Positions 7,722 to 21,898 of a stretch of DNA of 64,000 nt are shown here, one piece after another. The translations under genes were made by a program, and so were the position numbers. A model generated the notes under the pieces. It ran no database searches. It was not told where the DNA came from and saw only the letters and a list, made by a program, of their open reading frames with translations. Position 1 is the stretch's first letter, and each line of letters opens with the position of its first letter. Origin of the DNA: a virus (taxonomy: Duplodnaviria; Caudoviricetes); the IMG/VR virus record IMGVR_UViG_3300030330_005745, positions 18,949 to 82,948 of that record. One strand, 5' to 3'.

Positions 7722-7748
7722 CGTCAGTTTTAGGTCGTGACCAGGACC
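7722..7748 (-). ncRNA. 27-nt leader pseudoknot, copy 1
   Basis: GGTC-CT-GGTCA-C-GACC-TAAAAC-TGACG; 21 nt before an ATG. Confidence 0.7.
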
Positions 7749-7767
7749 TGGAGTCTAAGGGGGTGTG

Positions 7768-8709
7768 TCAACCCCCTTTCTTCCAGATGTGCTTGAGCTG
7801 TTGCAGGCTGTCACCGGGATATGGGACGTAGCCTGCTTCGAGCATGTTGTCGAAGAGTTCCCAACTGTCATCTTCTGTAAAAGTTTCGCCCTTGCGGTAG
7901 TGCCGCCAGTGACTGAGCGGTGCGTTTACACCGGACTTGGTATGGATAAGGGTCATGCGTCCCTTGGTATTGCCGTCTTCAGGCGGTGCATACCACCAGG
8001 CAACACACTTTTCTGGTACGTCGTTGCATTCGATCCGAATCTGAGACCGCTTGCTGATGAACTCGCGGTACTTCTCAACCCAGCTCAAGTGTTTGCAACG
8101 TGGTTTGAAATGTGGGATCTCTTCCTTGAACGCTTGTAGATGATTGAACTGGCGATGAAAGGACCCACATGAGCAATAAGGTTCGCCAAAACTAGCTTGC
8201 TCTTCCTGCTCTTCGTCAAAGTCACCATCCAAGTCAAGGAGCCGAGGTTTAATGTGAAACCCGTCTGGTGCAATGAGATACCCAATATCGAACTGTTCGT
8301 TCTGGAGTACGGGGAGTAAGGCATCTTTCGTATCGAAGTGGATGAGCTGATCAGCAAACCGTGCCTGGAAACGAGCGTTGGGATTGAGCCGTTCGCCTAG
8401 TGAGTGTGTGTATGACCAGCCTTTGAACAGGACATAACCGTTGTCCCGCCATGCGCTGGGTCCACGATAATTAGGTCCAAGGTACGCAAAGAAGTTCGGT
8501 AGTCTGTTTGTGAACTTCGTGAACGCGGCGCAAACCTTTTCCCTGGCAAACTCTTGGCTGGTGCCGTCAGTGCGAGTGATGCAAACGTTGTCGCCAACAA
8601 GACTGATGCCCGCAATGTCAGTGTCATCAAAGTCATCGAATGCTCGGCGTAAATTAGAACGGCAATAAATGAGAGACTGTGCCTCATTTAGTTTGGTTTT
8701 GGTTTCCAT
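7768..8709 (-). CDS. SWIM zinc-finger protein
   Basis: PYCSCGSF...PRCKHL (CxC-xn-CxH); start moved to METKTK to leave a divergent promoter gap. Confidence 0.65.
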   Translation of the reverse strand: METKTKLNEAQSLIYCRSNLRRAFDDFDDTDIAGISLVGDNVCITRTDGTSQEFAREKVCAAFTKFTNRLPNFFAYLGPNYRGPSAWRDNGYVLFKGWSYTHSLGERLNPNARFQARFADQLIHFDTKDALLPVLQNEQFDIGYLIAPDGFHIKPRLLDLDGDFDEEQEEQASFGEPYCSCGSFHRQFNHLQAFKEEIPHFKPRCKHLSWVEKYREFISKRSQIRIECNDVPEKCVAWWYAPPEDGNTKGRMTLIHTKSGVNAPLSHWRHYRKGETFTEDDSWELFDNMLEAGYVPYPGDSLQQLKHIWKKGG

Positions 8710-8766
8710 TTGAATAGTTTGAGTTTGGTAAGATGTATGTAACATCCAAACAATCTTGGATATCAC

Positions 8767-9027
8767 ATGGACAACATCAAGTACGTTTCGTTAAGTCAAT
8801 TCCAGATTGAACCAACGTTGGACGATAAGTTCTGGCTGGAAAAGATTAAACGATTCGTAGATGATTGTGAATCAACCTCCACATTGAAAGAAGTGGCGAC
8901 CATGTTAGCCACGATCGCCACCACAAGACAGGGTGTAATTCGTGGGTTGATCCAAGACATGTTCATCTTCCAGAATGTTTCTGTCGATGAGCAGGACGTG
9001 TCCAACCCAGATATTACTTCAAAGTGA
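8767..9027 (+). CDS. possible NblA-like small helical protein
   Basis: PTLDDKFWLEKIKRFV...LKEVATML..IATTRQ has an NblA-like pattern; weak. Confidence 0.4.
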   Translation: MDNIKYVSLSQFQIEPTLDDKFWLEKIKRFVDDCESTSTLKEVATMLATIATTRQGVIRGLIQDMFIFQNVSVDEQDVSNPDITSK

Positions 9028-10026
9028 GGCGTCTTCGCCAGTGGGGTTCTGCTGAGCAGGCAGGGCAGGTGCATCGATGGTGCGATTGGCAGGGGCGATC
9101 ATTAGACCGTCCTTCATGCCGTAGCTGCCACCGAGCTTCTCAGCGTCCTGCTTGGCATGCTGGTTGATGTAATCAGCAAACAGATCCTGGAACTTCCAAG
9201 CACTCTCACGGTTGTCATCCGGGATGGTGAGGTTGTCCAGTGATGCAATAGCTGTGTCTTGATCGCTGTACTCAGGGATGTCAAACCCTTCGATGCAGCA
9301 GATCTCGACGTTGTTTGCACCGCGCATGTCGTTCACCAGAGTCGGGATGAAGACTGTGGTGGCAAAGAACTTCTCGTTGAAAGCCAGGGGCACTTCAGCG
9401 TCCAGTGCTTTGCACAGACACTTGGACATTTCTTTCTCGTACATCTTGACCTTCTCGGCCATGTCCGTGCCGTTCAAACCTTTGAGGGTAAGGACGATGG
9501 GAATCTTGTGAGCGGGCACATTGTCTTTGGTCAGGATGTTGACCAAGTACTTGGTGCGAACGCTGTACTTACGCTTGTACATCTCACCTTTGGCATTCGC
9601 CAGATCAGATGCAGTCTTGTCTGCTTCAAAGAGTTCCTTAACTTCAGGATCCTCAAAGGTGCCGATGGTTTGACGCATGCCACCGGTTTCTTCGACCATC
9701 AGCGGTGAACGCAGCAGAATCTGCAGCCGAGGAACGATGAAGTTCAGTCCTTCTTCGATAGAGGTGTTGGGTGCCAAGCCAAAGGTTTGCTTGTAATCCC
9801 AAAGGACCGAGCCTTTGTCAAAGTCAGTTTCCTTGGCAGTCCAATTGCAGGTGTCCAGATCGGACTTGCGGATGAACCAACCACGGGTCTTGGATTTGTT
9901 CAGAGGTTGAATCGTAACGAGGTTCTGGTAGCCAGAGACAAACTCTTTGGATTGGAACATCCGGAAGGAGTCAAGGCTGCGCTTGGTGATGGATGAAGCT
10001 TTTTTCACAGTGAGGTTCGTAGTCAT
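9019..10026 (-). CDS. hypothetical protein, candidate ssDNA-annealing recombinase
   Basis: 335-aa ORF between SSB and Gp157 genes; function inferred from context only. Confidence 0.5.
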   Translation of the reverse strand: MTTNLTVKKASSITKRSLDSFRMFQSKEFVSGYQNLVTIQPLNKSKTRGWFIRKSDLDTCNWTAKETDFDKGSVLWDYKQTFGLAPNTSIEEGLNFIVPRLQILLRSPLMVEETGGMRQTIGTFEDPEVKELFEADKTASDLANAKGEMYKRKYSVRTKYLVNILTKDNVPAHKIPIVLTLKGLNGTDMAEKVKMYEKEMSKCLCKALDAEVPLAFNEKFFATTVFIPTLVNDMRGANNVEICCIEGFDIPEYSDQDTAIASLDNLTIPDDNRESAWKFQDLFADYINQHAKQDAEKLGGSYGMKDGLMIAPANRTIDAPALPAQQNPTGEDASL

Positions 10027-10038
10027 GAAATGAAAAGC

Positions 10039-10065
10039 GGGCAGTTTTACGTCTTGCCCAGGACG
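10039..10065 (-). ncRNA. 27-nt leader pseudoknot, copy 2
   Basis: CGTC-CT-GGGCA-A-GACG-TAAAAC-TGCCC; 12 nt before an ATG. Confidence 0.75.
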
Positions 10066-10169
10066 ATTTTAGTTCTATCCGCCAGCAGCGAATGTAAACA
10101 TTAATAACACTGTCATTAGCATTGCTGGAAGTAGAAGCAATACCAACAACTGCAGCTGATCAACTGTCA

Positions 10170-11051
10170 TTAGAACGGAGCGTTTTCATCATCGGTCGGT
10201 GGAGGACCGTAGGCACCAGGGAGATCAGGAAGATTCCCCCTTGCACCTACTGGTTCTTGTACCTTCCAAGGATCACTGGCAGGTTCTTGCGCAATCGCTG
10301 CTTGATGCGGAGAGCTGGGAACTTCTTGTTCCTCAGGATCACCAGTACGTCCACCCCAAAGGGATGTCACCTCCTGTCCTCCTGCCACGTTTGCTTTTGA
10401 TTCAACAGGCTTTTGATCAGCAATACCCTTGGGTGCCAAGGTCATGTTGATGAGCTGCAGCTTGGTTAGCGTGCGTTGCTCTTTGGTTTCTTTATCGGTC
10501 CACGAATCAGTGACGATGCGTGCCTCGATTGTCAGACCAGTACCCTTCTTGGTGTAGTCAGCGATCAGCTTCGCAGGCTGAAAGCGATCGTCGAAACCAT
10601 TGATGGCGTAGAAGTTGAACAGGTTTGACTCTCCCTTCTTGGTGACAACAGAGAGAGTTTGGTTTGTGATCATGTGGTTTGGCGTGGTCTTGCACTGCCG
10701 TGTGTCTTCAGGATTGATGTCCTTGACACATCGACCTGCCAATACCACGTTGTTCAGGATTGGGAACTGTTCAACATCGACAGGAGTTACCACTCCACCA
10801 TGCAATGAAAACGTCCTGGACTCCAGGTCGTACTGAATCTTGGCACCATGGATGTAGACACCCATGCCTTTCTTCATGGCACGAAAGCGGTTGCCCTGCT
10901 TCTCGCCATAAATGGTCAGCTCAAGATCAGTGGGAGCTTTCTTCCCATAAGGAGGAAGTGTGATTTTACAGCGCATGACTGTATTGGTTGCGCCCGTGAA
11001 AGCCTCGCGGGGATCTTCCCGGAGTTGAGCGCACACTGTGACGAAGTTCAT
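10170..11051 (-). CDS. ssb: ssDNA-binding protein with two tandem OB folds and an acidic tail
   Basis: Two SSB-like repeats (AQLREDP / LAGRCVKD; IEARIVTDSWTDKETKEQR) and C-terminal DDENAPF. Confidence 0.75.
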   Translation of the reverse strand: MNFVTVCAQLREDPREAFTGATNTVMRCKITLPPYGKKAPTDLELTIYGEKQGNRFRAMKKGMGVYIHGAKIQYDLESRTFSLHGGVVTPVDVEQFPILNNVVLAGRCVKDINPEDTRQCKTTPNHMITNQTLSVVTKKGESNLFNFYAINGFDDRFQPAKLIADYTKKGTGLTIEARIVTDSWTDKETKEQRTLTKLQLINMTLAPKGIADQKPVESKANVAGGQEVTSLWGGRTGDPEEQEVPSSPHQAAIAQEPASDPWKVQEPVGARGNLPDLPGAYGPPPTDDENAPF

Positions 11052-11070
11052 CGTAGGTACGGAAATGTGT

Positions 11071-11097
11071 TGGCAGTTTTACGTCTTACCTAGGACG
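11071..11097 (-). ncRNA. 27-nt leader pseudoknot, copy 3
   Basis: CGTC-CT-AGGTA-A-GACG-TAAAAC-TGCCA; 19 nt before the ssb ATG. Confidence 0.75.
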
Positions 11098-11103
11098 TGA
11101 GGA

Positions 11104-12966
11104 TCAATGCGTCTCCGCCCAGGAATGACCTACGCGTGAGTCGCCCTCAATCTTACATCTGAATCCAAAAAACTCTTGAGCTTCTGGGAATGCTTTCATG
11201 GCTTCTTCACGAATTTTTTCTGTGTGCTGCGGCGAGCAAGCCAACTGAATTTCATCGTGGATCATCAGCATTTGTTCCCATTGGTGTCCGTGGGGTAAAC
11301 CCAAGCGGCCTTCGATGTTCTTGTGGGTGTTAATGACAACCTGTTTCATCAGGATTGCACCAGCTGATTGAAGCAAGACGTTTAGACCCTTGAATGCAGA
11401 CCTGCAAACCAGAGGACGACGATCAAGACCGATCAAATACCCACGAATTCCAATCGTTTCTTCAATCTGATTCTTTAACTTTTTAAGCGCAGGGACACCA
11501 GTCATGAAGCCGTTGATGGCTGCCTTACCCATGGTTGCAAGCTTGTCGGGGTTCTTTTCATTTGGATCAATGATTGTCCCCGCCTTAATTGCACCACAGC
11601 CGTACAACATCCCGTACAGAAGACGCTTGCTGATGTCCCTGGTTTCAACACCGAACTGCTCCTGGTTGTAGGTGTGAATGTCTACTTCTGGATTCACAAC
11701 CAGTGCTGCGTACTCTCCGTCATCCCACAATGCTAGGTACCCAGCCAAACAGCGTAGCTCCAGTGCCTTGGCATCAATACCGATTAAGTCCCAACCATCA
11801 GGTGGATGAAACAAGCTGCGGCATTCATGGCCGTAAGGTGAATAACCAGCGGGGACTTGCCCAAGGTTGGGAGATTTATGGGCTGCTCGCCCGGTGATAC
11901 ATCCATTGGTAATTACATTGCCGTGCATCCTGCTGGTTTGATTGTCAACCAACTTGAGCCAAGCATTACTTCCATCTGCGATTTGACCAAGACGTTTCTT
12001 GATCAACATGTATTCGGCTAGAGGTTTTGCTTCGGGGTATGGGAGTCGTTCCAACACTTCGTCATTAAGGATTGGATTTCCTTTTTCAGTTTTCTTTTCT
12101 GGTTTCCATCCGTACTTTCGTGTAAGTCGATCAACAATTTGCTGACGCGATCCAGGATTGAATTTCTCATATCGGATCTTTTCGAATGGCTGTCCTGCAA
12201 CATAACCTCGTTTGGCATTGTTTACCTTTGGTGTAAACCATTCGCTGTGCTTGATGGGCGGGAAGATCTCTTCTAAATGTTCTTCGATAGCTTTTTGTTT
12301 TGCTCTAAGAACATCCACGAGATCAAGAGCTGCATCAATATCAAAAGGAACACCTGCTCTAATTTGTTTGTTAATTGCATAAGCAAATTCATGTTCAAGT
12401 TTAAGCGATGATCCCGGGTAGTTTTGTTTCCCGATGTGTAACCAAAGCTTCTTAGTGACTTCAACGTCTTGGATGCAGTACGCCAACATCTCCTCAGAAA
12501 ATTCGGAGAAGTCTTTGAAGTCGATCTTATGATTGGCCAGTCGCCATCCCCAGGCCTTAAGTGAAGCGGATCCACGCAGCTTAGGTGGAACCTCCGGATA
12601 TTGTTCTGTGTCGAGGTCATATAAGACCTCTGCGGGCCAGATGAGTCGTGTGCAGATGAGTGTGTCAAGAATCCGTGCAGAATGCTGGAAGTTGTAAAGC
12701 TTTTCGAGTACGGGGATATCGTAAAAGATTACATTGTGACCAATGAGAATATCGGCACTTGCCAAATGAGCAAGAGCCCTATCAACAGCATCAGGCCCGT
12801 AAGTAAAAGTCTGACCTCTCTTAATGTCATAGATAACGACACAGTGAGTAAGAGTGACTTCATCGTAAAGACCATCAGTTTCGATGTCAAAAATTAGCCA
12901 CGTTTCATTTTCTGAATCGGGCTTCAACGCAAATGCTGAGTTCTTGACCTGCGAGATATTCGTCAT
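11104..12966 (-). CDS. T7 gp5-like family A DNA polymerase with 3'-5' exonuclease
   Basis: Exo motifs DIETDG, GHNVIFYD, YCIQDV; pol motifs A (GIDAKALELR), B (RDISKRLLYGMLYG) and C (HDEIQ). Confidence 0.95.
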   Translation of the reverse strand: MTNISQVKNSAFALKPDSENETWLIFDIETDGLYDEVTLTHCVVIYDIKRGQTFTYGPDAVDRALAHLASADILIGHNVIFYDIPVLEKLYNFQHSARILDTLICTRLIWPAEVLYDLDTEQYPEVPPKLRGSASLKAWGWRLANHKIDFKDFSEFSEEMLAYCIQDVEVTKKLWLHIGKQNYPGSSLKLEHEFAYAINKQIRAGVPFDIDAALDLVDVLRAKQKAIEEHLEEIFPPIKHSEWFTPKVNNAKRGYVAGQPFEKIRYEKFNPGSRQQIVDRLTRKYGWKPEKKTEKGNPILNDEVLERLPYPEAKPLAEYMLIKKRLGQIADGSNAWLKLVDNQTSRMHGNVITNGCITGRAAHKSPNLGQVPAGYSPYGHECRSLFHPPDGWDLIGIDAKALELRCLAGYLALWDDGEYAALVVNPEVDIHTYNQEQFGVETRDISKRLLYGMLYGCGAIKAGTIIDPNEKNPDKLATMGKAAINGFMTGVPALKKLKNQIEETIGIRGYLIGLDRRPLVCRSAFKGLNVLLQSAGAILMKQVVINTHKNIEGRLGLPHGHQWEQMLMIHDEIQLACSPQHTEKIREEAMKAFPEAQEFFGFRCKIEGDSRVGHSWAETH

Positions 12967-13138
12967 TTTTGTTAATCCAGTTCAGGATTTGTTGCGCACC
13001 AGCACGGTGAGGATGGGAATAAATCCGCCCAAGGGCAGATGTTGAATCTAGATCGATCAGCTGAAAACTGTTGGTTTCCATACAAGGTTTGATACCTTGA
13101 GGTTTACCATTCTTCCAGGTAGCGATGACGTAACTCAT
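12905..13138 (-). CDS. hypothetical protein
   Basis: 77-aa ORF; overlaps the polymerase start by 62 nt. Confidence 0.55.
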   Translation of the reverse strand: MSYVIATWKNGKPQGIKPCMETNSFQLIDLDSTSALGRIYSHPHRAGAQQILNWINKNDEYLAGQELSICVEARFRK

Positions 13139-13192
13139 CTGTCAGTTTATTAACCAACAGATGATATTAGATCTTGTAGGTTATGCAACCTA

Positions 13193-13942
13193 CTACTTGC
13201 TGTATCCAACAAAGCCTCCTTCTTTTTTACGTTTCGATAGTGCTTTGGAGGCTTCGGTGTTAGCACGTTGGCTGCCATGGACCAGCAATGCAAACGGTTT
13301 GTCACCCAAGCAGTGGCTGTCGTCATGGTCAATTTCTAGACCAAGGTCAGCTGCTTCTTGTTCTGTATAGACCACCTGTGAGGTGCGAATAAAAACGTCA
13401 GGATTTTTATTTATAATTGCATCGAGGTTACCGCCCTTCGATGCTGTCAAATAAAAATTGCTAGGAATTTGGTCTTTGAGATTGAGCCACATGTTGAGTG
13501 ACTTGGTGTAGGCATAGAAGGTTTGCTTGGGCCGCTGCTTTGCAACGAGCATCCATGCCCGCATGTATTCTTCTGTCCAGAAGTCACCAGACTCATGGAC
13601 ACGGATTAGTTTCTTAGGTTTGGTAACCGTAAGAGAGACATCGATCAGATCACGGAGCAGCATGGCTTGGTTGCCATTGCTGTACATGGTCTTACGGATT
13701 AGATCCCAGTTGTGCCAGCGTGCTTCTCTGACGTTGGGCCGCACTTCACTCATTGCAGCAAAGCAACGGAAGTCTTTTGCGTCGGTGCCGTTGTTGTTGG
13801 GAATGTCAGTGATCTTGCCTGTCACGCGGTCTGCATAGGTACGGCAGACACCAGCGTGTGGACAGGAATAGCCTGCTGGCAGTGAGAAGATTAGTCTGTT
13901 GCGGAGCTTACCGTTGCCGGTAGAGAACTTGAGGGTTTGCAT
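13193..13942 (-). CDS. Gp88-like protein (radical-SAM-like fold)
   Basis: FSLPAGYSCPHAGVC...CFA, RVHESGDF and FYAYTKS motifs. Confidence 0.7.
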   Translation of the reverse strand: MQTLKFSTGNGKLRNRLIFSLPAGYSCPHAGVCRTYADRVTGKITDIPNNNGTDAKDFRCFAAMSEVRPNVREARWHNWDLIRKTMYSNGNQAMLLRDLIDVSLTVTKPKKLIRVHESGDFWTEEYMRAWMLVAKQRPKQTFYAYTKSLNMWLNLKDQIPSNFYLTASKGGNLDAIINKNPDVFIRTSQVVYTEQEAADLGLEIDHDDSHCLGDKPFALLVHGSQRANTEASKALSKRKKEGGFVGYSK

Positions 13943-13972
13943 TGAGATAGTTTGATAAGTTGTGCTTATGTA

Positions 13973-14010
13973 TGGGACTTACACAGCGTCTGCACCCGCG
14001 CTGATGCCCA
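13973..14010 (-). ncRNA. GGCAU/GUAAGUCC stem-loop, copy A
   Basis: TGGG-CATC-AGCG-loop-CGCT-GTGTAAGT-CCCA; lies between a stop codon and the Gp88-like gene. Confidence 0.55.
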
Positions 14011-14014
14011 TCAA

Positions 14015-14476
14015 TCAATCCATGTACTTACTTTCAATCCTTTCTACATAATGCATCGTTGCTTCTGCAATAAACAATGAAATATTTCCTTGATAATGTT
14101 CTTCATTTAAAAACGAAGCAGCTTCTTTAATTCTTTTCTGTTCTTCTTCAGTGAATGCAACACCTACGGCACCAGGTACCGTCTTGGGAGTGTATTCGTT
14201 TTTGACATAAGCAGGATTATCTTCCATCCATCGTTCGATGTCTGTGCGTTTGAAATAAAGGTTACGTCCACTCTTCATCAAAGGTTTTGGAAAGAGTCCG
14301 GACTTTATCTTTCGGTGGATTGTGTACCGACTGACGTCAAGCTCATCCATTACTTCTTGCATGCTCCAGCGGTCCTTACATTCTTTTAAAGTTTTGACTG
14401 GACCAGTGGAATAGGTGTTGGAGTTTGCCCATTCCTTTTCATTAGCCAGACGTCTTTTTGCTGCTTGGGGTGTCAT
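14015..14476 (-). CDS. AlpA/excisionase-like HTH DNA-binding protein
   Basis: WSMQEVMDELDVSRYTIHRKIKSGLFPKP...LYFKRTDIERWM; start moved to MTPQ. Confidence 0.75.
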   Translation of the reverse strand: MTPQAAKRRLANEKEWANSNTYSTGPVKTLKECKDRWSMQEVMDELDVSRYTIHRKIKSGLFPKPLMKSGRNLYFKRTDIERWMEDNPAYVKNEYTPKTVPGAVGVAFTEEEQKRIKEAASFLNEEHYQGNISLFIAEATMHYVERIESKYMD

Positions 14477-14523
14477 TGCAGTAGCGGTTGTTACAGGTGT
14501 GTAAAGGAGAGGTAAGATAAAGG

Positions 14524-14580
14524 AACGTTCACCTCTATCTTGGAGGCGCAACCAACTGATCCACGGAACGGGGGACAGTC
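14524..14580 (+). promoter_or_regulatory. glutamine-II (Downstream-peptide) riboswitch
   Basis: CGTTC-A-CCTC-loop-GAGG-CGCA...GAACG-GGG; P1 is 14526-30/14566-70 and P2 is 14532-35/14543-46; directly upstream of a DUF4278 ORF. Confidence 0.8.
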
Positions 14581-14597
14581 TTATGCGGAGAACCAAA

Positions 14598-14744
14598 ATG
14601 AAACTCGTCTATCGCGGAGTTCCATACGAGCGCAAGGAAGCTTTTACCAGCTACCTGTGTACTCAAAACCTCAAAGTCCAACGGGCTGAAGCGGAGAAAG
14701 AGCACGATCGTCGCAATAATAGCAAGAAAGAAATGATCGTTTGA
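14598..14744 (+). CDS. DUF4278-family peptide, 48 aa
   Basis: Manual ORF MKLVYRGVPYERKEAF...; carries the LxYRGVxY signature. Confidence 0.8.
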   Translation: MKLVYRGVPYERKEAFTSYLCTQNLKVQRAEAEKEHDRRNNSKKEMIV

Positions 14745-14943: not shown

Positions 14944-14945
14944 AC

Positions 14946-15374: not shown

Positions 15375-16024
15375 TTCTTGAATGCAACCTCTGCAATGGT
15401 GGGGAGCTTTTCAGTAAAGATAGTCTTGCAGCCTTCAGCGATATCCTTATGTTCTTTCTGTGTGCCGTTGCCTGTACGTAATTGGATGTAGTGAATCCAA
15501 CTGCGGAGAGTCCCGCACATGTATAAACGAGTAGGTGTTGCCAATGGAAGAATTGCCCTGGCACATTCTTTAGCTACACCGTCGCTAATCATTTGGCTAT
15601 AAAGATCCTCAGCCATACTGAAGACGTTTGCAATCTTGTCTTCATAGCAAGCACGTTGCCAGTCTGACAAGTTGTCAACGCTGTTCTGCCTGTTCTTGAG
15701 ATCTTGTGTTCTTAGTTCAGGCATTTCTGCACCACCAAGTTCTTGGGTGCTGGCGTAGCGTTGTGAAAATTCCTGGAATGTGAAGGACCTATGCCTCAGC
15801 AACTGAGGTGAAATTGCTCTGGTTGTGTTGATCTCAATGCACATTGATGCCATTTCAAATGGTGACCAATGCTCGTGATCAATGAGATAACGAATCAAAC
15901 GTGGAGCTGTCAAGTTGTTGTCTTGATTGGAAGGGTTGCTAACCCTTGCCATCATCGTGATCAGTTGCTCTGCCAGGGGTGTGACCCAGACAAGCTTGGT
16001 GAGCGGGTGCAGATTTTGATTCAT
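15371..16024 (-). CDS. thyX: flavin-dependent thymidylate synthase
   Basis: HEHWSPFE and RHRSFTFQEFSQRY signature, KECARAILP, QKEH. Confidence 0.95.
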   Translation of the reverse strand: MNQNLHPLTKLVWVTPLAEQLITMMARVSNPSNQDNNLTAPRLIRYLIDHEHWSPFEMASMCIEINTTRAISPQLLRHRSFTFQEFSQRYASTQELGGAEMPELRTQDLKNRQNSVDNLSDWQRACYEDKIANVFSMAEDLYSQMISDGVAKECARAILPLATPTRLYMCGTLRSWIHYIQLRTGNGTQKEHKDIAEGCKTIFTEKLPTIAEVAFKK

Positions 16025-16359
16025 TAGGCAGCACGATTGTAGTCGTCATCAAGACGTTCAATGTCGGCCTCAGACAGGTGAGAGCCCCGTTGAACCTCGA
16101 TGATGCCAAGTCCCTCTGGGCCTGCTTCTGCACGATGTACGGCATTCTCAGGCACAAAGAGAGTGGTCCCTGGAGCAGCTGGAGTAACAGTGTTACCGCA
16201 GGTGAGTTTACCGGATCCTTGAACGATTACCCAATTCTCAGAGCGATGCCAATGGCGTTGCAGACTGATGCGTTGGTTCGGATGAATCCAAATCTTTTTA
16301 ACTAAAAAACCTTCGCCTGTTTTTATGGTTTCAAAGTATCCCCAAGGACGTTTTTCCAT
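16024..16359 (-). CDS. cupin, mannose-6-phosphate isomerase type II C-terminal-like
   Basis: RPWGYF, RISLQRHWHRSENWVIVQG, IIEVQRG...DIERLDD. Confidence 0.85.
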   Translation of the reverse strand: MEKRPWGYFETIKTGEGFLVKKIWIHPNQRISLQRHWHRSENWVIVQGSGKLTCGNTVTPAAPGTTLFVPENAVHRAEAGPEGLGIIEVQRGSHLSEADIERLDDDYNRAA

Positions 16360-16664
16360 TACAGCTTTACATCGCTGTAATAATTATCCATGGTGTTACG
16401 GTAATCATCAACAACCTTTTCAATGTTTTCAGCAGCACAAAGGCGCATCTGATCTACTTCAACAGGTTGTTGGAGATGATCCCATTTGACTTGAATGAAC
16501 TTCCGACGGCGCGTACCAGTCCTGGTCTTTTGTGTTTTAAGAATCAGATCAGTGACGGTACCGAAGCGTTGACCCATGTTGATCGAAGTCATCTTGGGTT
16601 TGTCTGCAACGCGTTCACCCACTTGGAAACGAAAAGTGGGGTCAAATTTTTCTTGACTAGGCAT
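16359..16664 (-). CDS. hypothetical protein
   Basis: 101-aa ORF, coupled to its neighbours. Confidence 0.6.
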   Translation of the reverse strand: MPSQEKFDPTFRFQVGERVADKPKMTSINMGQRFGTVTDLILKTQKTRTGTRRRKFIQVKWDHLQQPVEVDQMRLCAAENIEKVVDDYRNTMDNYYSDVKL

Positions 16665-16977
16665 TGGTTTGAGGAATGGTGTCGAGGTGGAGGTTTTCTA
16701 AAGCGAGCAGCGTTGCTGTTGTGCCAAGGATACGAAAAGCATCCTCAATTAATTCATAGTTGTTTGACTCGTTGTTGTAATAATCGTTGAGGATTTTTTC
16801 AGCCTGCTCAAACCCCCCTGGGTCACCAGTGAGTCTGGTCAGGATGACACTAGACATGTTGTCCGTAAACATCTCTGAGAGTTTTTTACGGACGACAGGC
16901 CACGTCCATGATGGAACAAGATCAATGACTTGATGAACAAGTTGAAGATCTGTTAACGAGTGTTCGTGTGAAATCAT
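16657..16977 (-). CDS. hypothetical protein
   Basis: Start moved to MISHEH, immediately after a hairpin/U-tract. Confidence 0.6.
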   Translation of the reverse strand: MISHEHSLTDLQLVHQVIDLVPSWTWPVVRKKLSEMFTDNMSSVILTRLTGDPGGFEQAEKILNDYYNNESNNYELIEDAFRILGTTATLLALENLHLDTIPQTNA

Positions 16978-16978
16978 G

Positions 16979-17002
16979 AAAAAACCCCGGGTGTACCGGG
17001 GT
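16979..17002 (-). terminator. terminator-like hairpin abutting the next ATG
   Basis: CCCCGG-TACAC-CCGGGG-TTTTTT-C-ATG. Confidence 0.6.
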
Positions 17003-17023
17003 CGATGCTCTCCCCGTGCCAGG

Positions 17024-17383
17024 TTAGGCAGGGGTTGCTTCAGTTTCAACTACTTCTTCAAGCATTCCTGACTCTTGAAGTTTGTCGAGCATGGCAACCA
17101 TGATGTTGGCATTCTCTTGGGTCTTTTCCATGAAGTGTTTGGCTTTTTCTGCAGTGATGCTGTGAACGCAGCCATTGTCTTCGATGAAGACCCATGAGCC
17201 ATCTGGTTGTGGCTTGCCCTTCTCCAGTGCCCAACGTTCGCAATTGCGGATATATTGGATCTGGAGGTTGTGTGAGTCAGTCAGACCACGGTCGTCGATC
17301 CAGGTGAGGCCGACGTTGTACCGAGTGTCTTCGTCTTTGAAGCAATGAGGCTGAGGAAGAAACTGTTTGAAAGCTCCTAGCAT
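17024..17383 (-). CDS. hypothetical protein
   Basis: Start moved to MLGAFK, downstream of the tRNA. Confidence 0.6.
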   Translation of the reverse strand: MLGAFKQFLPQPHCFKDEDTRYNVGLTWIDDRGLTDSHNLQIQYIRNCERWALEKGKPQPDGSWVFIEDNGCVHSITAEKAKHFMEKTQENANIMVAMLDKLQESGMLEEVVETEATPA

Positions 17384-17403
17384 TGTCTTGTGTAGGTTTG
17401 GTT

Positions 17404-17492
17404 TGGTGAGAGTGGTGGGACTTGAACCCACATAGCCATTACTGACTGACAGATTTTAAGTCTGTTGCGTCTACCAATTCCGCCACACTCTC
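17404..17492 (-). tRNA. trnL: tRNA-Leu(UAA), CCA encoded
   Basis: GAGAGTG acceptor stem, TGGTAGACGC D-arm, anticodon loop CTTAAAA, long variable arm, GGTTCAAGTCC T-arm, 3' ACCA. Confidence 0.95.
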
Positions 17493-17496
17493 AGGT

Positions 17497-17533
17497 CTAG
17501 GACTTACACCACCCTTGGCTTGTGGATGCCTAG
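17497..17533 (-). ncRNA. GGCAU/GUAAGUCC stem-loop, copy B
   Basis: CTAGG-CATC-CAC-loop-GTG-GTGTAAGT-CCTAG; ends 4 nt before the tRNA 5' end. Confidence 0.55.
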
Positions 17534-17537
17534 CTGA

Positions 17538-19328
17538 TCAGGACTTTAGTTGTTCCTCACGGACGTGCAACGCTTCCTTGAATGCATGTTCAACATTGGA
17601 ACGTTCAACATCATCAAGACGTTTGTTACCTACATCCGCAATTTGAACAACGCTCATCACACCGTTGTCAACCGTTAGTTGAATGGTGTAACGAGGTTTG
17701 TTCTCGATCATGCACAAGATGATGAGATGTTTCATCTTCTTGATTCCTTCTGCATATCCATGTCCACCACCAACGCAGTTACGTACGGCACGGCCCCACG
17801 CAGCAAGTTGGTGTGTGTCATGCGGTTGGAAGAACGAGAAGTAACCATCGCCAGGTAGGGTGCCTGACTGTGTGTGGTTGATTACATCGTTGAAAGGGAT
17901 ACGCATGGGGTTTGGAAACAATTTCTGTGGTAGATCAATGTTGGGGTTGGTGATCTTCCAGGTCTCTGCCATGAGATGGTCATGCCATTCCTGGAGACGC
18001 CAACGCTTTGGCTTGATGTTGTCGAGCCGACCGGATGCAATGCATTGGGTCAGCATCTGATAGGTATCACGCCAAAGATGGAAGTAAATATGTATGTTGC
18101 CTGTCTTACTATCTGTGCTGATGTATTCTCTTTCTTCTAGTTCACGTTGGTAATACGTGTGCATCATGTTGAGGTATGACTCAACAGGAAGATTGTCACG
18201 CATCCATTGTTTACCTGTATCACTGTGATAACCAGGAAATTCACAGCAACGCAACCAGTTGTACCTGGAATGAAGCAGGTTTAGATCCATGTCACGATAA
18301 ATAGCTTTAACGTGATGCATTGAATCAATAAACTGATTAAGAATTGCATACGGTCTGACAAGAAGCCTGACATCATATTCATCTTTTTCAGTTTCTTCTT
18401 CATGGATGGCAAAGGTATCTTTCATGGCTTGTGCCACCATTGATCTAAACCATTTAGCGGACCACACATCTTCTAACCAAGGACCACTCCAACGTTTACG
18501 TAATAGATCAATAATGGTATCAACATCGTGAACATAATCATCGCCTCCAGACAACCACTTAGGCCTTGAATAAGACCCCGACATAATTTTTGTGAAGGTA
18601 CAATTTGCTGGGTTCAAACGTTTGAAATAATGAGCATTATTATTGCCGATAAATGTAGGGATACCTTTAAGTAATTCTGCTTGCCATTTATTAATAGCCT
18701 TTGAAATTTCATGAGTAGCACCCCAGGTGTTGATGCGATGAGTTTCGGTTACTTTCCTCCAATAACTACCGGTGTAACCATCAACAAACTCATCTTTGGT
18801 AAAGAATAAAGTTTTGCGATACCAGAAGGTACGGCCATCTTTGATGCGTGGGAGCATGTCATCTTGTGTGCCATGCACATGATCAAACATTCCTTTATTG
18901 ACATAACTGCCTTTAGCAATAAAACGTTCATCGCATTGCTTACGTGCTGCAGCTGTATCTTTGAAGGTAAAGCTAAGGCCATAGACATAGCCATCATCTT
19001 TACGTCGTGGTATCCAGGCAGCAACCCACAGTTGTTTGTGGTAGTAAATAACTGCCACAGGTTTAGGTTCTTCACCGAAGACAGGCTTGGTAATTAGGTG
19101 TACCTTTCCTTGTTTGACAGACTTTGAATTGATGTTGTCAACAACTTCGTTCCAAGTTCTGTCGTTGACGATGTCAGATGGGATAAGGTTCGAGGGCCTG
19201 CCGTTGGGATGTGTATTCTTCTTTTTGGCTTTGCGATCTTCTGCAGCCATGACAGCTGCAAGTTTCTTGCGGGTTTGGTCATAGCCTGCAACTTCAAGTG
19301 CAAGCTGATCGGGGAGATTGAAATGCAT
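17538..19328 (-). CDS. PcfJ-like domain protein
   Basis: C-terminal QPHDTHQLAAWGRAVRNCVG..Y...IILCM...YTIQL and LQEWHD. Confidence 0.7.
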   Translation of the reverse strand: MHFNLPDQLALEVAGYDQTRKKLAAVMAAEDRKAKKKNTHPNGRPSNLIPSDIVNDRTWNEVVDNINSKSVKQGKVHLITKPVFGEEPKPVAVIYYHKQLWVAAWIPRRKDDGYVYGLSFTFKDTAAARKQCDERFIAKGSYVNKGMFDHVHGTQDDMLPRIKDGRTFWYRKTLFFTKDEFVDGYTGSYWRKVTETHRINTWGATHEISKAINKWQAELLKGIPTFIGNNNAHYFKRLNPANCTFTKIMSGSYSRPKWLSGGDDYVHDVDTIIDLLRKRWSGPWLEDVWSAKWFRSMVAQAMKDTFAIHEEETEKDEYDVRLLVRPYAILNQFIDSMHHVKAIYRDMDLNLLHSRYNWLRCCEFPGYHSDTGKQWMRDNLPVESYLNMMHTYYQRELEEREYISTDSKTGNIHIYFHLWRDTYQMLTQCIASGRLDNIKPKRWRLQEWHDHLMAETWKITNPNIDLPQKLFPNPMRIPFNDVINHTQSGTLPGDGYFSFFQPHDTHQLAAWGRAVRNCVGGGHGYAEGIKKMKHLIILCMIENKPRYTIQLTVDNGVMSVVQIADVGNKRLDDVERSNVEHAFKEALHVREEQLKS

Positions 19329-19351
19329 GATGTTGTGTAGGTATGAGAAAG

Positions 19352-19378
19352 GGGCAGTTTAGTGTCATGCCCAGGACA
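19352..19378 (-). ncRNA. 27-nt leader pseudoknot, copy 4
   Basis: TGTC-CT-GGGCA-T-GACA-CTAAAC-TGCCC; 23 nt before an ATG. Confidence 0.75.
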
Positions 19379-19384
19379 TTTGAG

Positions 19385-19642
19385 TCAGTCTAGATACCGA
19401 TCGGATGTGTCAATGACTTTCCAGTTAAGGTCAAGATCATCAACGTAACGGAGGAAAGCAGCTCCATCGTGGGGGAATGGTACCTCTGGATCAACTGCAA
19501 AGCTTGCTTCGCATAGTGCCGGGCCGTATTCAGCAGGTTCAAGCATAGTTTGTGCATGGACAAGAACCATGTCTTCAACCGTTGCTTCCACATAGACACG
19601 TTGATCGTCAAAGGTAGTTTCATGGATTGAGATAACAGCCAT
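19385..19642 (-). CDS. hypothetical protein
   Basis: 85-aa ORF with EPAEYGPALC. Confidence 0.6.
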   Translation of the reverse strand: MAVISIHETTFDDQRVYVEATVEDMVLVHAQTMLEPAEYGPALCEASFAVDPEVPFPHDGAAFLRYVDDLDLNWKVIDTSDRYLD

Positions 19643-19905
19643 TAGTTGATCTGTTTGCGAACGGTCAGATGTTTGACCATGGCATAACCCATGGAATGAA
19701 TCGATGAATCCTTCGATGCAAAGATCCCATTGGGACCATACTCCTCAAAGTATTCTTCGAAGGCATCAATGATGCGTTGCCTGTTGCTCATGTCTGCAGT
19801 TCTGTATGCAGCCATAAGTTTTTGAGCAAAGCCGCCACCGTAGGTTTCGATGCGTTGGACAGTTGCTTCGATCGTTGGATCGGTAGGTGTGAGCTTGTTG
19901 AGCAT
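19642..19905 (-). CDS. conserved phage hypothetical protein
   Basis: YGGGFAQKLMAAYRTADMSNRQRIIDAFEEYFEEY. Confidence 0.65.
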   Translation of the reverse strand: MLNKLTPTDPTIEATVQRIETYGGGFAQKLMAAYRTADMSNRQRIIDAFEEYFEEYGPNGIFASKDSSIHSMGYAMVKHLTVRKQIN

Positions 19906-19913
19906 GAGTTGAT

Positions 19914-20111
19914 TTAGAACAGTTTGATGTTGCGCTTGGACAGGCCAGTGCCCGGGATTCCAACGGAACCACGGACACCAGACCCACGAACATTCATTGT
20001 GAACAAGAATGGTCCAAGCTTGATTGATTTGCTGAATGACTTCACACCACGTTCAGTGATGTTGAAGCCACCGACAGTTTTGTCGAAGTTGAATGCAGAT
20101 CTTTTAGTCAT
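19914..20111 (-). CDS. DUF4236-like protein
   Basis: FSKSIKLGPF..NV..SGV..SVGIPGTGLS. Confidence 0.65.
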   Translation of the reverse strand: MTKRSAFNFDKTVGGFNITERGVKSFSKSIKLGPFLFTMNVRGSGVRGSVGIPGTGLSKRNIKLF

Positions 20112-20445
20112 TTAGTGGAATACTTTTGCGTTTAAATGGTTCAGTCCAGGGAGTACGATGATCCATGTAAATAATGTCATCGGTATGTGAGGTGACGTCA
20201 CCTTTGTAAGCTTTGAAGAAATAACGATCAGCTTCTTTGTACTTTGGTACAAAACAAGACTCACTGGCAAATTCCCAGTCAGCAAGCTGACAACAAAGCT
20301 CTTCATAAACTTCAAAAGGATCTTGTCTTTGATCTTGGAACTTTTGATTCCAAGCGTCAAAATCCCCCCTGGTCATTACAGCTTCTTCAATAATTGGAAC
20401 AAGTCTGTAATGAACAAGAGTTACAAGTTCTTGTTTGTCTGTCAT
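20104..20445 (-). CDS. hypothetical protein
   Basis: 113-aa ORF coupled to its neighbours. Confidence 0.55.
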   Translation of the reverse strand: MTDKQELVTLVHYRLVPIIEEAVMTRGDFDAWNQKFQDQRQDPFEVYEELCCQLADWEFASESCFVPKYKEADRYFFKAYKGDVTSHTDDIIYMDHRTPWTEPFKRKSIPLND

Positions 20446-20663
20446 TGTTTGTCGGGATTGAGAGCGTCAGGCAGGATGTACCTTGGATCATCCTTTTCCA
20501 TGTTCGACATAACGAACACTTCTCCTGTATTTGGATCAAGGAATCCACCGATGAATCCTGCGCCGCAAGAGTCAGCTTTTTCCCTGAGTTGTGCAGTGAG
20601 CTGCATCATGCGCAGCTTGGTGGACTGTGGAGTGTTGTCCGGTACAGCAGGTTGGTTTGGCAT
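20442..20663 (-). CDS. hypothetical protein
   Basis: MPNQPAV...GFIGGFLDPNTGEVFVMSNM; start uncertain (20732 is an alternative). Confidence 0.55.
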   Translation of the reverse strand: MPNQPAVPDNTPQSTKLRMMQLTAQLREKADSCGAGFIGGFLDPNTGEVFVMSNMEKDDPRYILPDALNPDKQ

Positions 20664-20789
20664 AGTGAAATCAGGTGTAGGAATGGTGAATGAATGAGCA
20701 GTGTAGGCGGTGGTTTCACCGATGATTAACATAGAACTTTAGCTTTTCTTAAGGATGCCGAAGACAAAGGCCCCGACATCCCAAGGTAT

Positions 20790-21032
20790 CTACTTGTAAT
20801 GCAGTTGTCTAGTCCTGTAATCCAAGACGCTTTCCGTCCATGTGGAATCAGGATGATCAAGGACAGCACGGCGGGCTTTTTCGACGGCCTCTTCCGTGCC
20901 ACCACAGTTCAACATCAATGCAACAGCAGTGTCTAGGTCTGCGAGCAGATGTGAGACAGCATTTGGAAGTCCACGGGGTATAGTTCTACCTTTCTGTTCG
21001 TAATACTCAGTGATGTAGTCAGGATAATCCAT
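20790..21032 (-). CDS. hypothetical protein
   Basis: 80-aa ORF. Confidence 0.55.
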   Translation of the reverse strand: MDYPDYITEYYEQKGRTIPRGLPNAVSHLLADLDTAVALMLNCGGTEEAVEKARRAVLDHPDSTWTESVLDYRTRQLHYK

Positions 21033-21057
21033 GAGATGAAGAAGAAAGATTGAAGGG

Positions 21058-21249
21058 TTATCTATAAGAACTAAAAGATATCTTGGTACTCTCCCTGCGG
21101 GGGTCCGGGGGGATTGATTCTTCTACTTCGATCAATCCCATGTTCTTACCTTCTGTATCAATCTGTGATGCCAGATGTCTTGCAAATGCACCACGTCTTC
21201 TTGGATTGAAGACTGTCTTCTTGGGCTTGTTTGTCCTGGGACGTGCCAT
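21058..21249 (-). CDS. basic hypothetical protein
   Basis: MARPRTNKPKK..., coupled to the upstream stop. Confidence 0.5.
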   Translation of the reverse strand: MARPRTNKPKKTVFNPRRRGAFARHLASQIDTEGKNMGLIEVEESIPPDPRRESTKISFSSYR

Positions 21250-21605
21250 CAAATTAAAGCGAGGATGGTCAGCCAACTATCGGGGTGGTCAGGTTCGACT
21301 TCATCGTCTGCCGGTGTTAAGCAGGTTGAATCGAGTGCCCACTCCTCGATTTCTCCGTTGGAAGGGACAGGGTACCATCCTTCGAGCGAGTCCTCGATGT
21401 TTTCTGGCTTCCAGTAACACTGGAGTTTGCCACTTGGGTCTTTGAAGACACAGCCCGTGATCGGGTGCGTGTTTTCGTCTTCTTGGTTGTAGAGGAGCGG
21501 GTCGTAGTTGACTTCTGCGGGGAACTGCTCTTGGCACTCCTCTTCTGTGAAGGGGACGTAACCGGTGAGTTCTTCTGCGATGCGTTTGGTTTCTGGATGA
21601 AGCAT
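21249..21605 (-). CDS. acidic hypothetical protein
   Basis: 118 aa; GWYPVPSNGEIEEWALDS.C.TP..DEVEPDHPDSWL. Confidence 0.65.
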   Translation of the reverse strand: MLHPETKRIAEELTGYVPFTEEECQEQFPAEVNYDPLLYNQEDENTHPITGCVFKDPSGKLQCYWKPENIEDSLEGWYPVPSNGEIEEWALDSTCLTPADDEVEPDHPDSWLTILALI

Positions 21606-21694
21606 GAGATCAACTCCGTGATGATGATTGAGATGATGACAATGATGTGCAGGATGACATCATCGTGTGTGTCATTCTTGGTGGTAGTCGGCAT
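21317..21694 (-). CDS. single-TM protein with a long basic Ser/Thr/Lys tail, overlapping the next gene
   Basis: MPTTTK..VILHIIVIISIIITELISCF followed by a low-complexity tail; 289-nt overlap. Confidence 0.45.
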   Translation of the reverse strand: MPTTTKNDTHDDVILHIIVIISIIITELISCFIQKPNASQKNSPVTSPSQKRSAKSSSPQKSTTTRSSTTKKTKTRTRSRAVSSKTQVANSSVTGSQKTSRTRSKDGTLSLPTEKSRSGHSIQPA

Positions 21695-21848
21695 CGCCTG
21701 CCACCTCCTCTGACATGAGTTCTTGCATGAGCTGTTCTTGCTCGTTGGCAATGTCGTTGAGAACGAATTGCTGGTCTTGGGTGTACTCAGTTTTGACAGC
21801 ATCGTTGAGACGTTGCTGGTCGAGTAGCCAGGTCTTGATAAGAGACAT
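21672..21848 (-). CDS. hypothetical protein, 58 aa
   Basis: Manual ORF MSLIKTWLLDQQRLND...; preceded by pseudoknot copy 5. Confidence 0.6.
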   Translation of the reverse strand: MSLIKTWLLDQQRLNDAVKTEYTQDQQFVLNDIANEQEQLMQELMSEEVAGDADYHQE

Positions 21849-21871
21849 GATGTGAAATGGTATAGGTCAGT

Positions 21872-21898
21872 GAGTAGTTTAAGGACGTGCTCAGGTCC
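21872..21898 (-). ncRNA. 27-nt leader pseudoknot, copy 5
   Basis: GGAC-CT-GAGCA-C-GTCC-TTAAAC-TACTC; compensatory changes in P1. Confidence 0.7.

Follow-up and report, generated by a model that had tools for sequence, protein, structure and literature searches.

The early arm of a cyanophage carries one compact 27-nt RNA element five times, in the leaders of genes with little in common, and the question raised by this locus is what such a repeated structure does there. The original prediction, made on a 64,000-nt window (the whole stretch of viral DNA analysed), described the element as an H-type pseudoknot with the fixed layout 4-2-5-1-4-6-5 and proposed a phage-wide translational regulon acting through an SSB-bound operator, an S1-dependent enhancer, a small-ligand riboswitch or a nuclease block. 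All five 27-mers were verified at the predicted minus-strand positions and in that layout (Table 1); the CU linker and AAACU are invariant across them, and the distances to the downstream ATG fall within the 12–23 nt that had been described. A degenerate pattern for the element matched the five copies with no mismatches, where 0.81 matches would be expected at two or fewer mismatches, and none of 100 shuffles reached six matches.

Table 1. Pseudoknot copies in the early arm, the hairpin and Gp157/Gam-like gene near copy 1, and flanking features; distances are measured from the knot.
Feature	Position (strand)	Sequence or structure	5' flank	3' flank
Copy 1	7722..7748 (-)	GGUC CU GGUCA C GACC UAAAAC UGACG	TGA of ORF 7768-8766, 19 nt	ATG of 39-codon hydrophobic mini-gene (7581-7700), 21 nt
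Hairpin near copy 1	7751..7775 (-)	8 bp, AAGGGGGU-UGAC-ACCCCCUU, as read from the sequence		Copy 1 (just downstream)
Gp157/Gam-like gene, downstream of copy 1	6853-7572		Mini-gene 7581-7700 (preceding gene)	
Copy 2	10039..10065 (-)	CGUC CU GGGCA A GACG UAAAAC UGCCC	SSB stop, 104 nt	ATG of DUF5895 gene 9019-10026, 12 nt
Copy 3	11071..11097 (-)	CGUC CU AGGUA A GACG UAAAAC UGCCA	TGA of family A DNA polymerase gene 11104-12966, 6 nt	ATG of SSB gene 10170-11051, 19 nt
Copy 4	19352..19378 (-)	UGUC CU GGGCA U GACA CUAAAC UGCCC	TGA of ORF 19385-19642, 6 nt	ATG of PcfJ-like gene 17538-19328, 23 nt
Copy 5	21872..21898 (-)	GGAC CU GAGCA C GUCC UUAAAC UACUC	TGA of ORF 21904-22212, 5 nt	ATG of 58-codon ORF 21672-21848, 23 nt

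The longer stop-to-knot gap at copy 1 arises because the predicted hairpin, whose loop holds the stop codon of the upstream ORF, intervenes. No sixth copy was found in the complete 82,948-bp genome of this S-EIVl-like cyanophage, and scanning that genome with a loose descriptor for variants of the knot gave only noise beyond the five. Querying cultured phages with the 15-kb arm (megablast) recovered nothing but a 95-nt stretch, which carries a thymidylate synthase annotation. Synechococcus phage S-EIVl carries a knot copy at the same junction as copy 4, and its PcfJ-like protein is 28% identical. The knot leaders do lack a Shine-Dalgarno (SD) sequence, as had been reported, but this is not special to them, as almost all genes on the minus-strand arm are without one. 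A role as SD substitute is unlikely, since genes without a knot lack an SD as well.

Both helices vary in ways that preserve pairing. Within the window, P1 occurs as GGUC/GACC, CGUC/GACG (twice), UGUC/GACA and GGAC/GUCC, the last (copy 5) being a compensated A-U/U-A swap. P2 comprises four to five pairs in each copy, with a compensated change of G-C to U-A in copy 1, a change of G-C to A-U in copy 5, and a single U.G wobble in copy 3. Covariation across more than 110 independent phage copies proves the two helices. In an alignment of 113 copies, 94.5% of cells are paired, as compared with 81% in shuffles. In stem 2, four of the five pairs covary, with 94.7% of cells paired, and every pair that varies at all does so by covariation: pair 10:28 is AU in 54 copies and GC in 51; pair 11:27 is GC in 75, AU in 19, UA in 8, and CG in 4; and pair 12:26 is CG in 62, UG in 32, and UA in 12. 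P1 variants include GAC/GUC, GCC/GGC, CAC/GUG, UAC/GUA, CUC/GAG, and AUC/GAU. These variants provide a natural compensation test: among copies with P1 GAC/GUC, at least four of the five P2 pairs form in 109/116, while at loci with the uncompensated combination GAC/GAC (71 in all, from 72 hits) P2 pairing is at chance level. G.U pairs are restricted to the sense strand. Loop nucleotides show high conservation among the aligned copies, and the single junction nucleotide is variable. The fold is shown to be selected as RNA, and the RNA-level H-type pseudoknot first proposed for the sense strand of the early arm is supported.

Judged by its sequence, the phage core GUCC..GAC.UUAAACU is that of coremin (xrRNA-C, GUCCGAAGACGUUAAACUAC), a motif of beny-, cucumo-, umbra-, hypo-, chryso-, and other eukaryotic RNA viruses (PMC10520033, PMC6546385). 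Coremin confers Xrn1 resistance, stimulates −1 frameshifting, and blocks scanning ribosomes; its published model is an H-type pseudoknot like that of BWYV, with A-minor contacts (PMC10520033, PMC10321173). Coremin and the phage element share the GUC/GAC hairpin core, a C as the first loop nucleotide, the near-identical A-rich spacer UUAAACU, and a site just past an ORF, whether in a 3' UTR or between genes. The hp1 of coremin (3–4 bp with a GUC/GAC core) is present in copies 1–4 and, as GAC/GUC, in copy 5, and likewise in the 113 aligned copies. The coremin lp1 consensus is YGAD (4 nt) or YGNNAD (6 nt), with loops of 7–8 nt tolerated, whereas the phage loop, C-U-G-R-G-Y-A-N, has 8 nt, five of which form a canonical stem 2 with bases after AAAC. 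It keeps the first Y and the penultimate A, has U rather than G at position 2, and ends in C in copies 1 and 5; a published example of a coremin octaloop departs from the lp1 consensus too. Of the coremin spacer GUUAAACUAC, phage copies keep AAACU, preceded by U or A, and have the 3' strand of stem 2 (e.g., GCCC or ACUC) in place of the terminal AC. Furthermore, the phage element lacks hp2, and its hosts lack Xrn1. No hp2 follows the window copies, as the next 30 nt have MFE values between 0 and −2.5 kcal/mol and fold no more stably than shuffled sequences. For Xrn1 resistance, hp2 is strictly needed by coremin and its Watson-Crick variant alike (PMC10520033, PMC10321173).

That variant, xrRNA-WCC, was selected in vitro and has a natural example in Sanxia picorna-like virus 5 (PMC10321173); without hp2 it stalls ribosomes and gives approximately 30% −1 frameshifting (PMC10520033, PMC10321173). 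The phage knot has its covarying canonical loop-to-spacer stem 2, maintained by compensatory changes, and its location a few nucleotides after the last ORF. However, xrRNA-WCC has a tetraloop, a 3-bp stem 2, and an essential G loop 1, in place of the CU loop 1, 5-bp stem 2, and 1-nt junction of the phage element. The luteovirid −1 frameshift knots (BWYV, PLRV), of which those of BWYV show no Xrn1 resistance, share a short stem 1, a 2-nt loop 1 starting with C, a 1-nt junction, an A-rich loop 3, and an A-site codon 5–7 nt away. A −1 stimulator of this type has a slippery heptamer 5–9 nt upstream and an overlapping −1 ORF. In the phage copies the A-site codon is a stop and the slippery heptamer is missing; upstream of copies 3–5 a stop codon lies at 5–6 nt instead. 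REP elements and intercistronic stem-loop stabilisers (malE-malF) are bacterial-operon structures that may shield the upstream segment from 3' exonucleases. They too place a stable structure between cistrons, though as simple, lineage-specific hairpins rather than a universally conserved pseudoknot. Pistol, twister, and HDV ribozymes, CRISPR-repeat mimics, ToxI, and RNase P acceptor mimics were dropped, as the extra helices or end geometry that we take them to need are missing.

The knot was located in hundreds of unrelated phages, whose hosts span many phyla, in some RNA viruses, and in many bacteria. Cultured phages with the knot infect S. aureus, Synechococcus, Lactobacillus, and Mycobacterium, and the motif is present in Vibrio and Ralstonia phages as well. 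RNA-virus contigs in IMG/VR carry the same octaloop knot after RdRp and coat ORFs, there with hp2, and tailed-phage contigs also carry canonical tetraloop coremin. In 54/128 bacterial copies, a conserved mini-ORF leads into the knot, always in the same frame, with its last Cys codon 7 nt upstream; this mini-ORF has no NCBIfam family. The Rfam comparison (cmscan) proposed with the original prediction, run on the window (gathering threshold), a 14.6-kb segment (E ≤ 10), an 81-nt slice, and 18 bacterial loci, returned no match on the motif.

The knot keeps a closer distance relationship with the preceding stop than with the following start. It is co-directional with its flanking genes, and its distance from the stop is most often 5 nt and falls off abruptly below that value (exactly 5 in 28/143 copies, closer in only 2); stop triplets peak at that distance (38 vs. 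a background of ~9). With a 5-nt gap, knot nucleotide 1 would sit at position +12 relative to the P site, immediately beyond the helicase site of the ribosome. Downstream starts are 12–29 nt away, mostly 19–29, and tRNAs 2–5 nt away. Some copies lie at operon ends and some at least 100 nt from any stop. The flanks are G-poor and unstructured, and some copies are preceded by TTGACA..TAGACT or good sigma-70 boxes. The position is shown to spare both the terminating upstream and the initiating downstream ribosome from unfolding the knot. Genome compaction could partly cause the placement close to ORF ends. The genes that follow are mutually unrelated, with at least 29 protein families represented in addition to tRNA genes, and the element is not leader-specific.

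These distributions bear directly on the regulon reading, in which a trans-acting protein (the phage SSB, or another phage or host RNA-binding protein such as S1) would coordinate the early genes through an operator. The five copies do lie within one functional arm, their loop nucleotides are highly conserved, and copy 3 resembles the T4 gene 32 operator in setting a 5' pseudoknot and an unstructured leader before an SSB gene. However, the T4 operator differs in sequence and geometry and is gene-specific and gp32-dependent, whereas the phage element is generic: SSB lies downstream in only 2/70 cases, non-SSB genes follow the other 68 and four of the five window copies, and some copies precede tRNAs. 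Conserved loops are accounted for by intramolecular triples in solved BWYV-type knots, coremin itself being only modelled on that fold. As the same sequence spans phages of many phyla, eukaryotic RNA viruses, and bacterial chromosomes, no phage-specific partner is possible; the proposed regulon is not supported, and a protein operator of any kind is quite improbable. We consider a small-ligand riboswitch more doubtful still. Its appeal is the size and H-type topology of the preQ1-I class, which has an A-rich 3' loop and then CU... Yet no model matched (RF00522 included), even at E ≤ 10 on the 81-nt slice; L2, which in preQ1-I holds a conserved ligand-pairing C, is here the sole junction nucleotide and is variable; stem 2 contains neither an SD nor a start codon, and the leaders lack an SD; most copies have no terminator platform; and the gene contexts are unrelated. 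A promoter or palindromic operator acting as DNA has the least to recommend it and is highly improbable: GUC-N8-GAC is palindromic, UAAACU resembles a −10 box, and the record of one S. aureus phage marks a predicted promoter at the knot, but complementarity is maintained by compensatory changes rather than fixed bases, the G.U wobbles are strand-specific, no TANNNT peak occurs at any fixed distance among 143 copies, no sigma-70-like sites adjoin the window copies, and the element occurs in RNA viruses.

A more serious contender, though still unlikely, is a device aimed at ribosomes. It could be a barrier that shuts ribosomes out of the next RBS, tRNA, or terminator when they have read through, shifted frame, or slid on after termination, or it could tune termination and reinitiation between cistrons. 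Frameshifting by Watson-Crick coremin without hp2, the block that coremin poses to scanning ribosomes, the bacterial mini-ORF in its fixed frame, and the exact 5-nt limit after stops, which is the geometry of a frameshift stimulator, all point this way. Against it, normal termination is efficient, leaving the benefit in doubt; the window copies have no upstream slippery site; and copies also occur at operon ends and far from any stop.

The knot is probably a general RNA roadblock rather than a regulator specific to SSB or recombination genes, because its core matches that of coremin, which stops both RNA-degrading enzymes and ribosomes. Each copy is a compact coremin-class H-type knot (stem 1 nGUC/GACn, loop 1 CU, stem 2 of 5 bp, junction of 1 nt, A-rich loop 3 nUAAAC) and would be transcribed within the long minus-strand early mRNA. 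Needing no phage-specific partner, it may act as a mechanically very stable, protein-independent block that punctuates the polycistronic message and keeps processive machines (exonucleases, 5'-end-dependent RNase E scanning, stray ribosomes) from crossing between cistrons, so that the flanking segments would keep their own stability and translation. We tentatively take insulation against RNA decay to be the main function, with a confidence a little short of even; the nuclease block, of the four mechanisms originally listed, is the one that fits this closest known relative. As for direction, the coremin analogy favours a 5'-to-3' block protecting the downstream cistron, and the context statistics point instead to a cap at the 3' end of the upstream one. 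xrRNAs act as generic mechanical blocks that stop bacterial RNase J1 in vitro (PMC5760640). With hp2 required for Xrn1 resistance and missing from the window copies, the one property documented for a knot that lacks hp2 is the stalling of ribosomes rather than resistance to nucleases. To our knowledge, Vibrio and Ralstonia hosts have no RNase J, and the presence of the motif in their phages thus excludes a 5'-to-3' exonuclease as the universal target.

xrRNAs are regarded as a means by which eukaryotic RNA viruses counter Xrn1, and one paper states that they never meet RNase J1 in nature (PMC5760640). The searchable coremin papers mention the motif in RNA viruses only, with no mention of phages or bacteria, and it is not described in the main text of a 2023 catalogue of 10,006 viral RNA candidates (PMC10690425). 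Here the coremin core is a common punctuation mark of tailed-phage operons and appears in bacterial leaders, and the knot accounts for many unexplained 50–60-nt intergenic gaps of phage genomes. The target of the minimal fold where Xrn1 is absent becomes a directly testable question, and the 27-nt element offers a natural module for cistron insulation in synthetic operons. It is conceivable, if on the unlikely side, that the coremin fold is a universal, protein-independent roadblock that phages and bacteria use as their own exoribonuclease-resistant RNA. If so, natural xrRNAs directed at RNase J, RNase E scanning, or 3' exonucleases would be seen here for the first time; in bacterial leaders, the conserved Cys-containing mini-ORF would drive ribosomes into the knot and so switch an Rrf2 regulator; and eukaryotic RNA viruses, giant viruses, tailed phages, and bacterial leaders would share the same core of ~20 nt through retention or reinvention.

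The five 27-nt elements of the minus-strand early arm lie where the original prediction placed them and share one layout: 4 nt for the 5′ side of stem 1 (P1), CU, 5 nt for the 5′ side of stem 2 (P2), a single nucleotide, 4 nt for the 3′ side of P1, 6 nt ending in AAAC, and 5 nt for the 3′ side of P2. The covariation claimed for this compact H-type pseudoknot (hereafter, the knot) also holds. Every P1 position is paired in each of the five, and three of the four vary between copies while complementarity is kept; P2 forms four or five pairs per copy and includes a U·G wobble and two compensated changes. A degenerate pattern returned exactly these five copies at zero mismatches (chance expectation at up to two mismatches, 0.81), and no further copies were found in the entire 82,948-bp virus record containing the window. 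Distances to the next ATG and the identities of the downstream genes likewise agree with the prediction. The spacers do lack a Shine–Dalgarno (SD) sequence, as had been noted, but this is not a speciality of knot leaders, as nearly every minus-arm gene in the window lacks one, with or without a knot.

Coordinates of the knots in the window, of features near them, and of related elements elsewhere
Feature	Location	Strand	Associated gene or remark
Knot, copy 1	7722-7748	-	21 nt to ATG; 39-codon hydrophobic mini-gene (MFETILATALPIL...), 7581-7700 (-), then Gp157/Gam-like gene
Knot, copy 2	10039-10065	-	12 nt to ATG; DUF5895 gene
Knot, copy 3	11071-11097	-	19 nt to ATG; SSB gene
Knot, copy 4	19352-19378	-	23 nt to ATG; PcfJ-like gene (weak assignment)
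Knot, copy 5	21872-21898	-	23 nt to ATG; 58-codon ORF
TTGACA-N7-15-TAGACT word	7749-7790 and 19379-19420	-	Also at L041, L056, L062, L100, L120
Glutamine-II (Downstream-peptide) riboswitch	14523-14579	+	Rfam 47.5 bits, E 2e-08
53-codon ORF	14583-14744	+	Behind the riboswitch
tRNA gene	17407-17492	-	Rfam 62.9 bits
Variant knots	L018:~9985-10020, L059:~11090-11125		
Tetraloop coremin (example)	L430:12136-12153		
Knot of Staphylococcus phage B166 (Phietavirus), KP893289.1	L425:1501-1527		P1 core GAC/GUC
Mini-ORF with knot (examples)	L141:1588-1692, L155:1270-1323, L226:802-882		Bacterial genome loci

A scan of IMG/VR with a pattern in which only GUCCU, A, GAC, and WAAACU were fixed identified at least 116 loci, and in nearly all of those listed the loop is complementary to the unconstrained 3′ segment. 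Across 113 distinct copies (alignment A1), 94.5% of cells are paired; shuffles reach 81%, and slid partners no more than 50%. Pair 10:28 is AU in 54 copies and GC in 51; pair 11:27 is GC (75), AU (19), UA (8), or CG (4); pair 12:26 is CG (62), UG (32), or UA (12); and the outer P1 pair takes six standard pair types. Fetched loci contain further P1 cores (GAC/GUC, GCC/GGC, CAC/GUG, UAC/GUA, CUC/GAG, and AUC/GAU). The compensated core GAC...GUC occurs at no fewer than 119 loci, with at least four of the five P2 pairs in 109 of 116 copies, whereas uncompensated GAC...GAC totals 71 loci (72 hits) across the entire collection, with chance-like P2 pairing that is complete in only 3 of 72. This natural compensation test settles P1 pairing. 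Variant knots at L018 and L059 extend the family beyond the 27-nt pattern: in one, 9 nt are inserted at the 1-nt junction, and another combines a self-complementary stem 2 of 4 bp (GGCC) with UUAAAA and lacks the junction nucleotide.

G·U pairs are found on the sense strand only, and knots point in the same direction as neighboring genes; together with their presence in RNA viruses, these features indicate that the knot works as RNA, not as DNA. A DNA-level site such as a promoter has little support: besides compensation and strand-specific G·U pairing, the context survey of viral copies revealed no fixed −10 box, and the window copies lack neighboring sigma-70-like promoters. Within the S-EIVl-like group, several copies are preceded at 2–31 nt by a recurring TTGACA-N7-15-TAGACT word; it does not fit a sigma-70 promoter, its spacing varying too much and frequently being too short.

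A strong Rfam match, for which the original prediction had allowed, did not emerge, as no family in Rfam 15 matches the knot. On some short IMG/VR contigs, the ORFs upstream of the knot encode RdRps (tombus-like and picorna-like) and a tombus-like coat protein, a lead to published work on exoribonuclease-resistant RNAs. In the coremin motif described there, GUCCGAAGACGUUAAACUAC (PMC10520033), a GUC/GAC hairpin (hp1) leads into a conserved A-rich spacer, and hp2, a further hairpin, follows; Dilweg and colleagues modeled the motif as a BWYV-like H-type pseudoknot in which S1 is hp1, L1 the first loop C, and S2 the loop:spacer pairing, with the A-rich L2 placed in the S1 minor groove (PMC10321173, PMC10520033). 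Coremin halts both Xrn1 and scanning ribosomes and promotes −1 frameshifting; loops of 6–8 nt are tolerated, and a Watson–Crick variant is known (PMC10321173, PMC10520033). Coremin and the window knot are nearly identical over GUCC...GAC(N)UUAAACU; in the window copies, however, the loop is 8 nt, five of its nucleotides pair as a canonical stem 2, and hp2 is absent. A C+ triple and A-minor triples are predicted for the 27-mer. RNA-virus copies in IMG/VR have hp2 directly after the knot. Coremin in its canonical tetraloop form, GUCCGAAGACNUUAAACUAC, is also common on IMG/VR contigs of 17–59 kb (L428–L541), and those sampled are tailed phages with tape-measure, portal, and terminase proteins; AC follows in 37 of 37 distinct copies, as in the published consensus, though the pattern did not demand it. 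In one large gut-phage group, this motif directly follows a terminator-like T-run. Given the shared core and these differences, we place the window element in the coremin class as a new variant; as an exoribonuclease-resistant RNA it is a candidate. While the fold class is already known, we found no mention in the searchable literature of coremin folds in dsDNA phages or bacteria, nor of a form with a 5-bp stem and no hp2.

Knots occur on large dsDNA phage contigs, on two giant-virus MAG contigs, on RdRp- or coat-encoding RNA-virus contigs in IMG/VR, and in at least 119 loci of bacterial genomes from many phyla (by our own estimate, about 0.5 chance matches to the bacterial-genome pattern are expected). 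BLAST recovered the knot in 164 cultured-phage records, 85 of them from Staphylococcus phages (mostly S. aureus) and others from phages of Vibrio, Lactobacillus, Streptococcus, Mycobacterium, Arthrobacter, Bacillus, Paracoccus, and Ralstonia. The knot of S. aureus phage B166 is separated by 9 nt from the minor-head gene upstream and precedes the scaffold and major capsid genes; this record, the one Staphylococcus phage record inspected, annotates it as a predicted promoter. Cultured cyanophages with the knot are S-EIVl, S-H35, Nostoc NMeng1, and Microcystis Mwe-JY13. Synechococcus phage S-EIVl, which is distantly related to the phage of the window, has six copies on a single strand of its early arm. 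One of them precedes the PcfJ-like homolog (28% identity) and another the MFE... mini-gene found behind copy 1; this arrangement of knot and mini-gene also recurs in several IMG/VR relatives (L074, L118, L100, and L056). From this kinship, the host of the window's phage is very probably a cyanobacterium, a host with which the window's Glutamine-II riboswitch is consistent; this riboswitch and the ORF behind it form a plus-strand pair within the otherwise minus-strand early arm.

Among 149 viral copies used for context statistics, the gap from the end of the upstream same-strand ORF to the knot is exactly 5 nt in 28 cases, shorter in only 2, and then tails off; stop triplets peak at that distance (38, against a background of about 9). 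With a stop codon in the ribosomal A site, a 5-nt spacer puts the first knot nucleotide at +12, just past the helicase site, suggesting that the knot is placed as near as possible without being unwound. Start codons lie mostly 19–29 nt downstream, tRNA genes follow within 2–12 nt (mostly 2–5 nt) in 13 copies, and hairpins follow many others; flanks are G-poor. The window's own early-arm tRNA gene adjoins none of the five knots. A same-strand ORF lies upstream in 120 of 133 copies and a same-strand gene or tRNA downstream in 102 of 133, with operon-end positions outnumbering operon-start positions 25 to 7 and downstream proteins falling into at least 29 Pfam families. At six divergent phage loci (L018, L026, L034, L049, L083, and L096), a DUF932 (phrog_1221) gene ends 7–13 nt before the knot; downstream neighbors differ, tRNA-Asp among them, so that here it is the upstream gene that the knot accompanies.

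The knot is a generic RNA fold under selection and kept off ribosome footprints. Of the mechanisms originally proposed, a nuclease-type block is the leading reading, while an SSB-bound operator and a riboswitch have little support. Such a block may act on 5′→3′ decay and protect the downstream cistron, consistent with the coremin experiments, the position before capsid genes in B166, and the stopping of bacterial RNase J1 by xrRNAs in vitro (PMC5760640). Alternatively, it may cap the 3′ end of the upstream cistron; the closer tie to upstream ORFs and the operon-end excess favor this, and the 2–5-nt tail left by RNase P cleavage before a tRNA would fit. To our knowledge, RNase J is absent from some hosts of knot-bearing phages, which argues against a nuclease block, as does the lack in window copies of hp2, required for Xrn1 resistance in published variants (PMC10321173, PMC10520033). 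The main rival is a ribosome-directed device: an hp2-less Watson–Crick variant has been documented to stall ribosomes (PMC10321173, PMC10520033), and 54 of 128 bacterial knots are entered, in a fixed frame, by a conserved mini-ORF.

These mini-ORFs, found in Omnitrophota, Planctomycetota, Desulfobacterota, and other MAGs (L124–L240), have about 18–27 codons, a strong SD, and the core ..(Y/F)M(L/I)RP-VAHC(K/S)(E/D)GC.., the last Cys codon ending 7 nt ahead of the knot and the stop falling at knot nucleotides −1 to +2, 6–8, 12–14, or 18–20. An Rrf2-family regulator is the usual gene 19–41 nt behind the knot, with an NrdJ-like, HMA/CopZ-like, or permease gene there in some cases. The class has no match in Rfam or NCBIfam and, judged from sequence, looks like an undescribed ribosome-driven leader switch.

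For the window's phage, a knot acting alone as a mechanical roadblock would most likely insulate neighboring cistrons of a long early mRNA from processive decay. B166 and the other Staphylococcus phages offer a tractable system for functional work on the knot.
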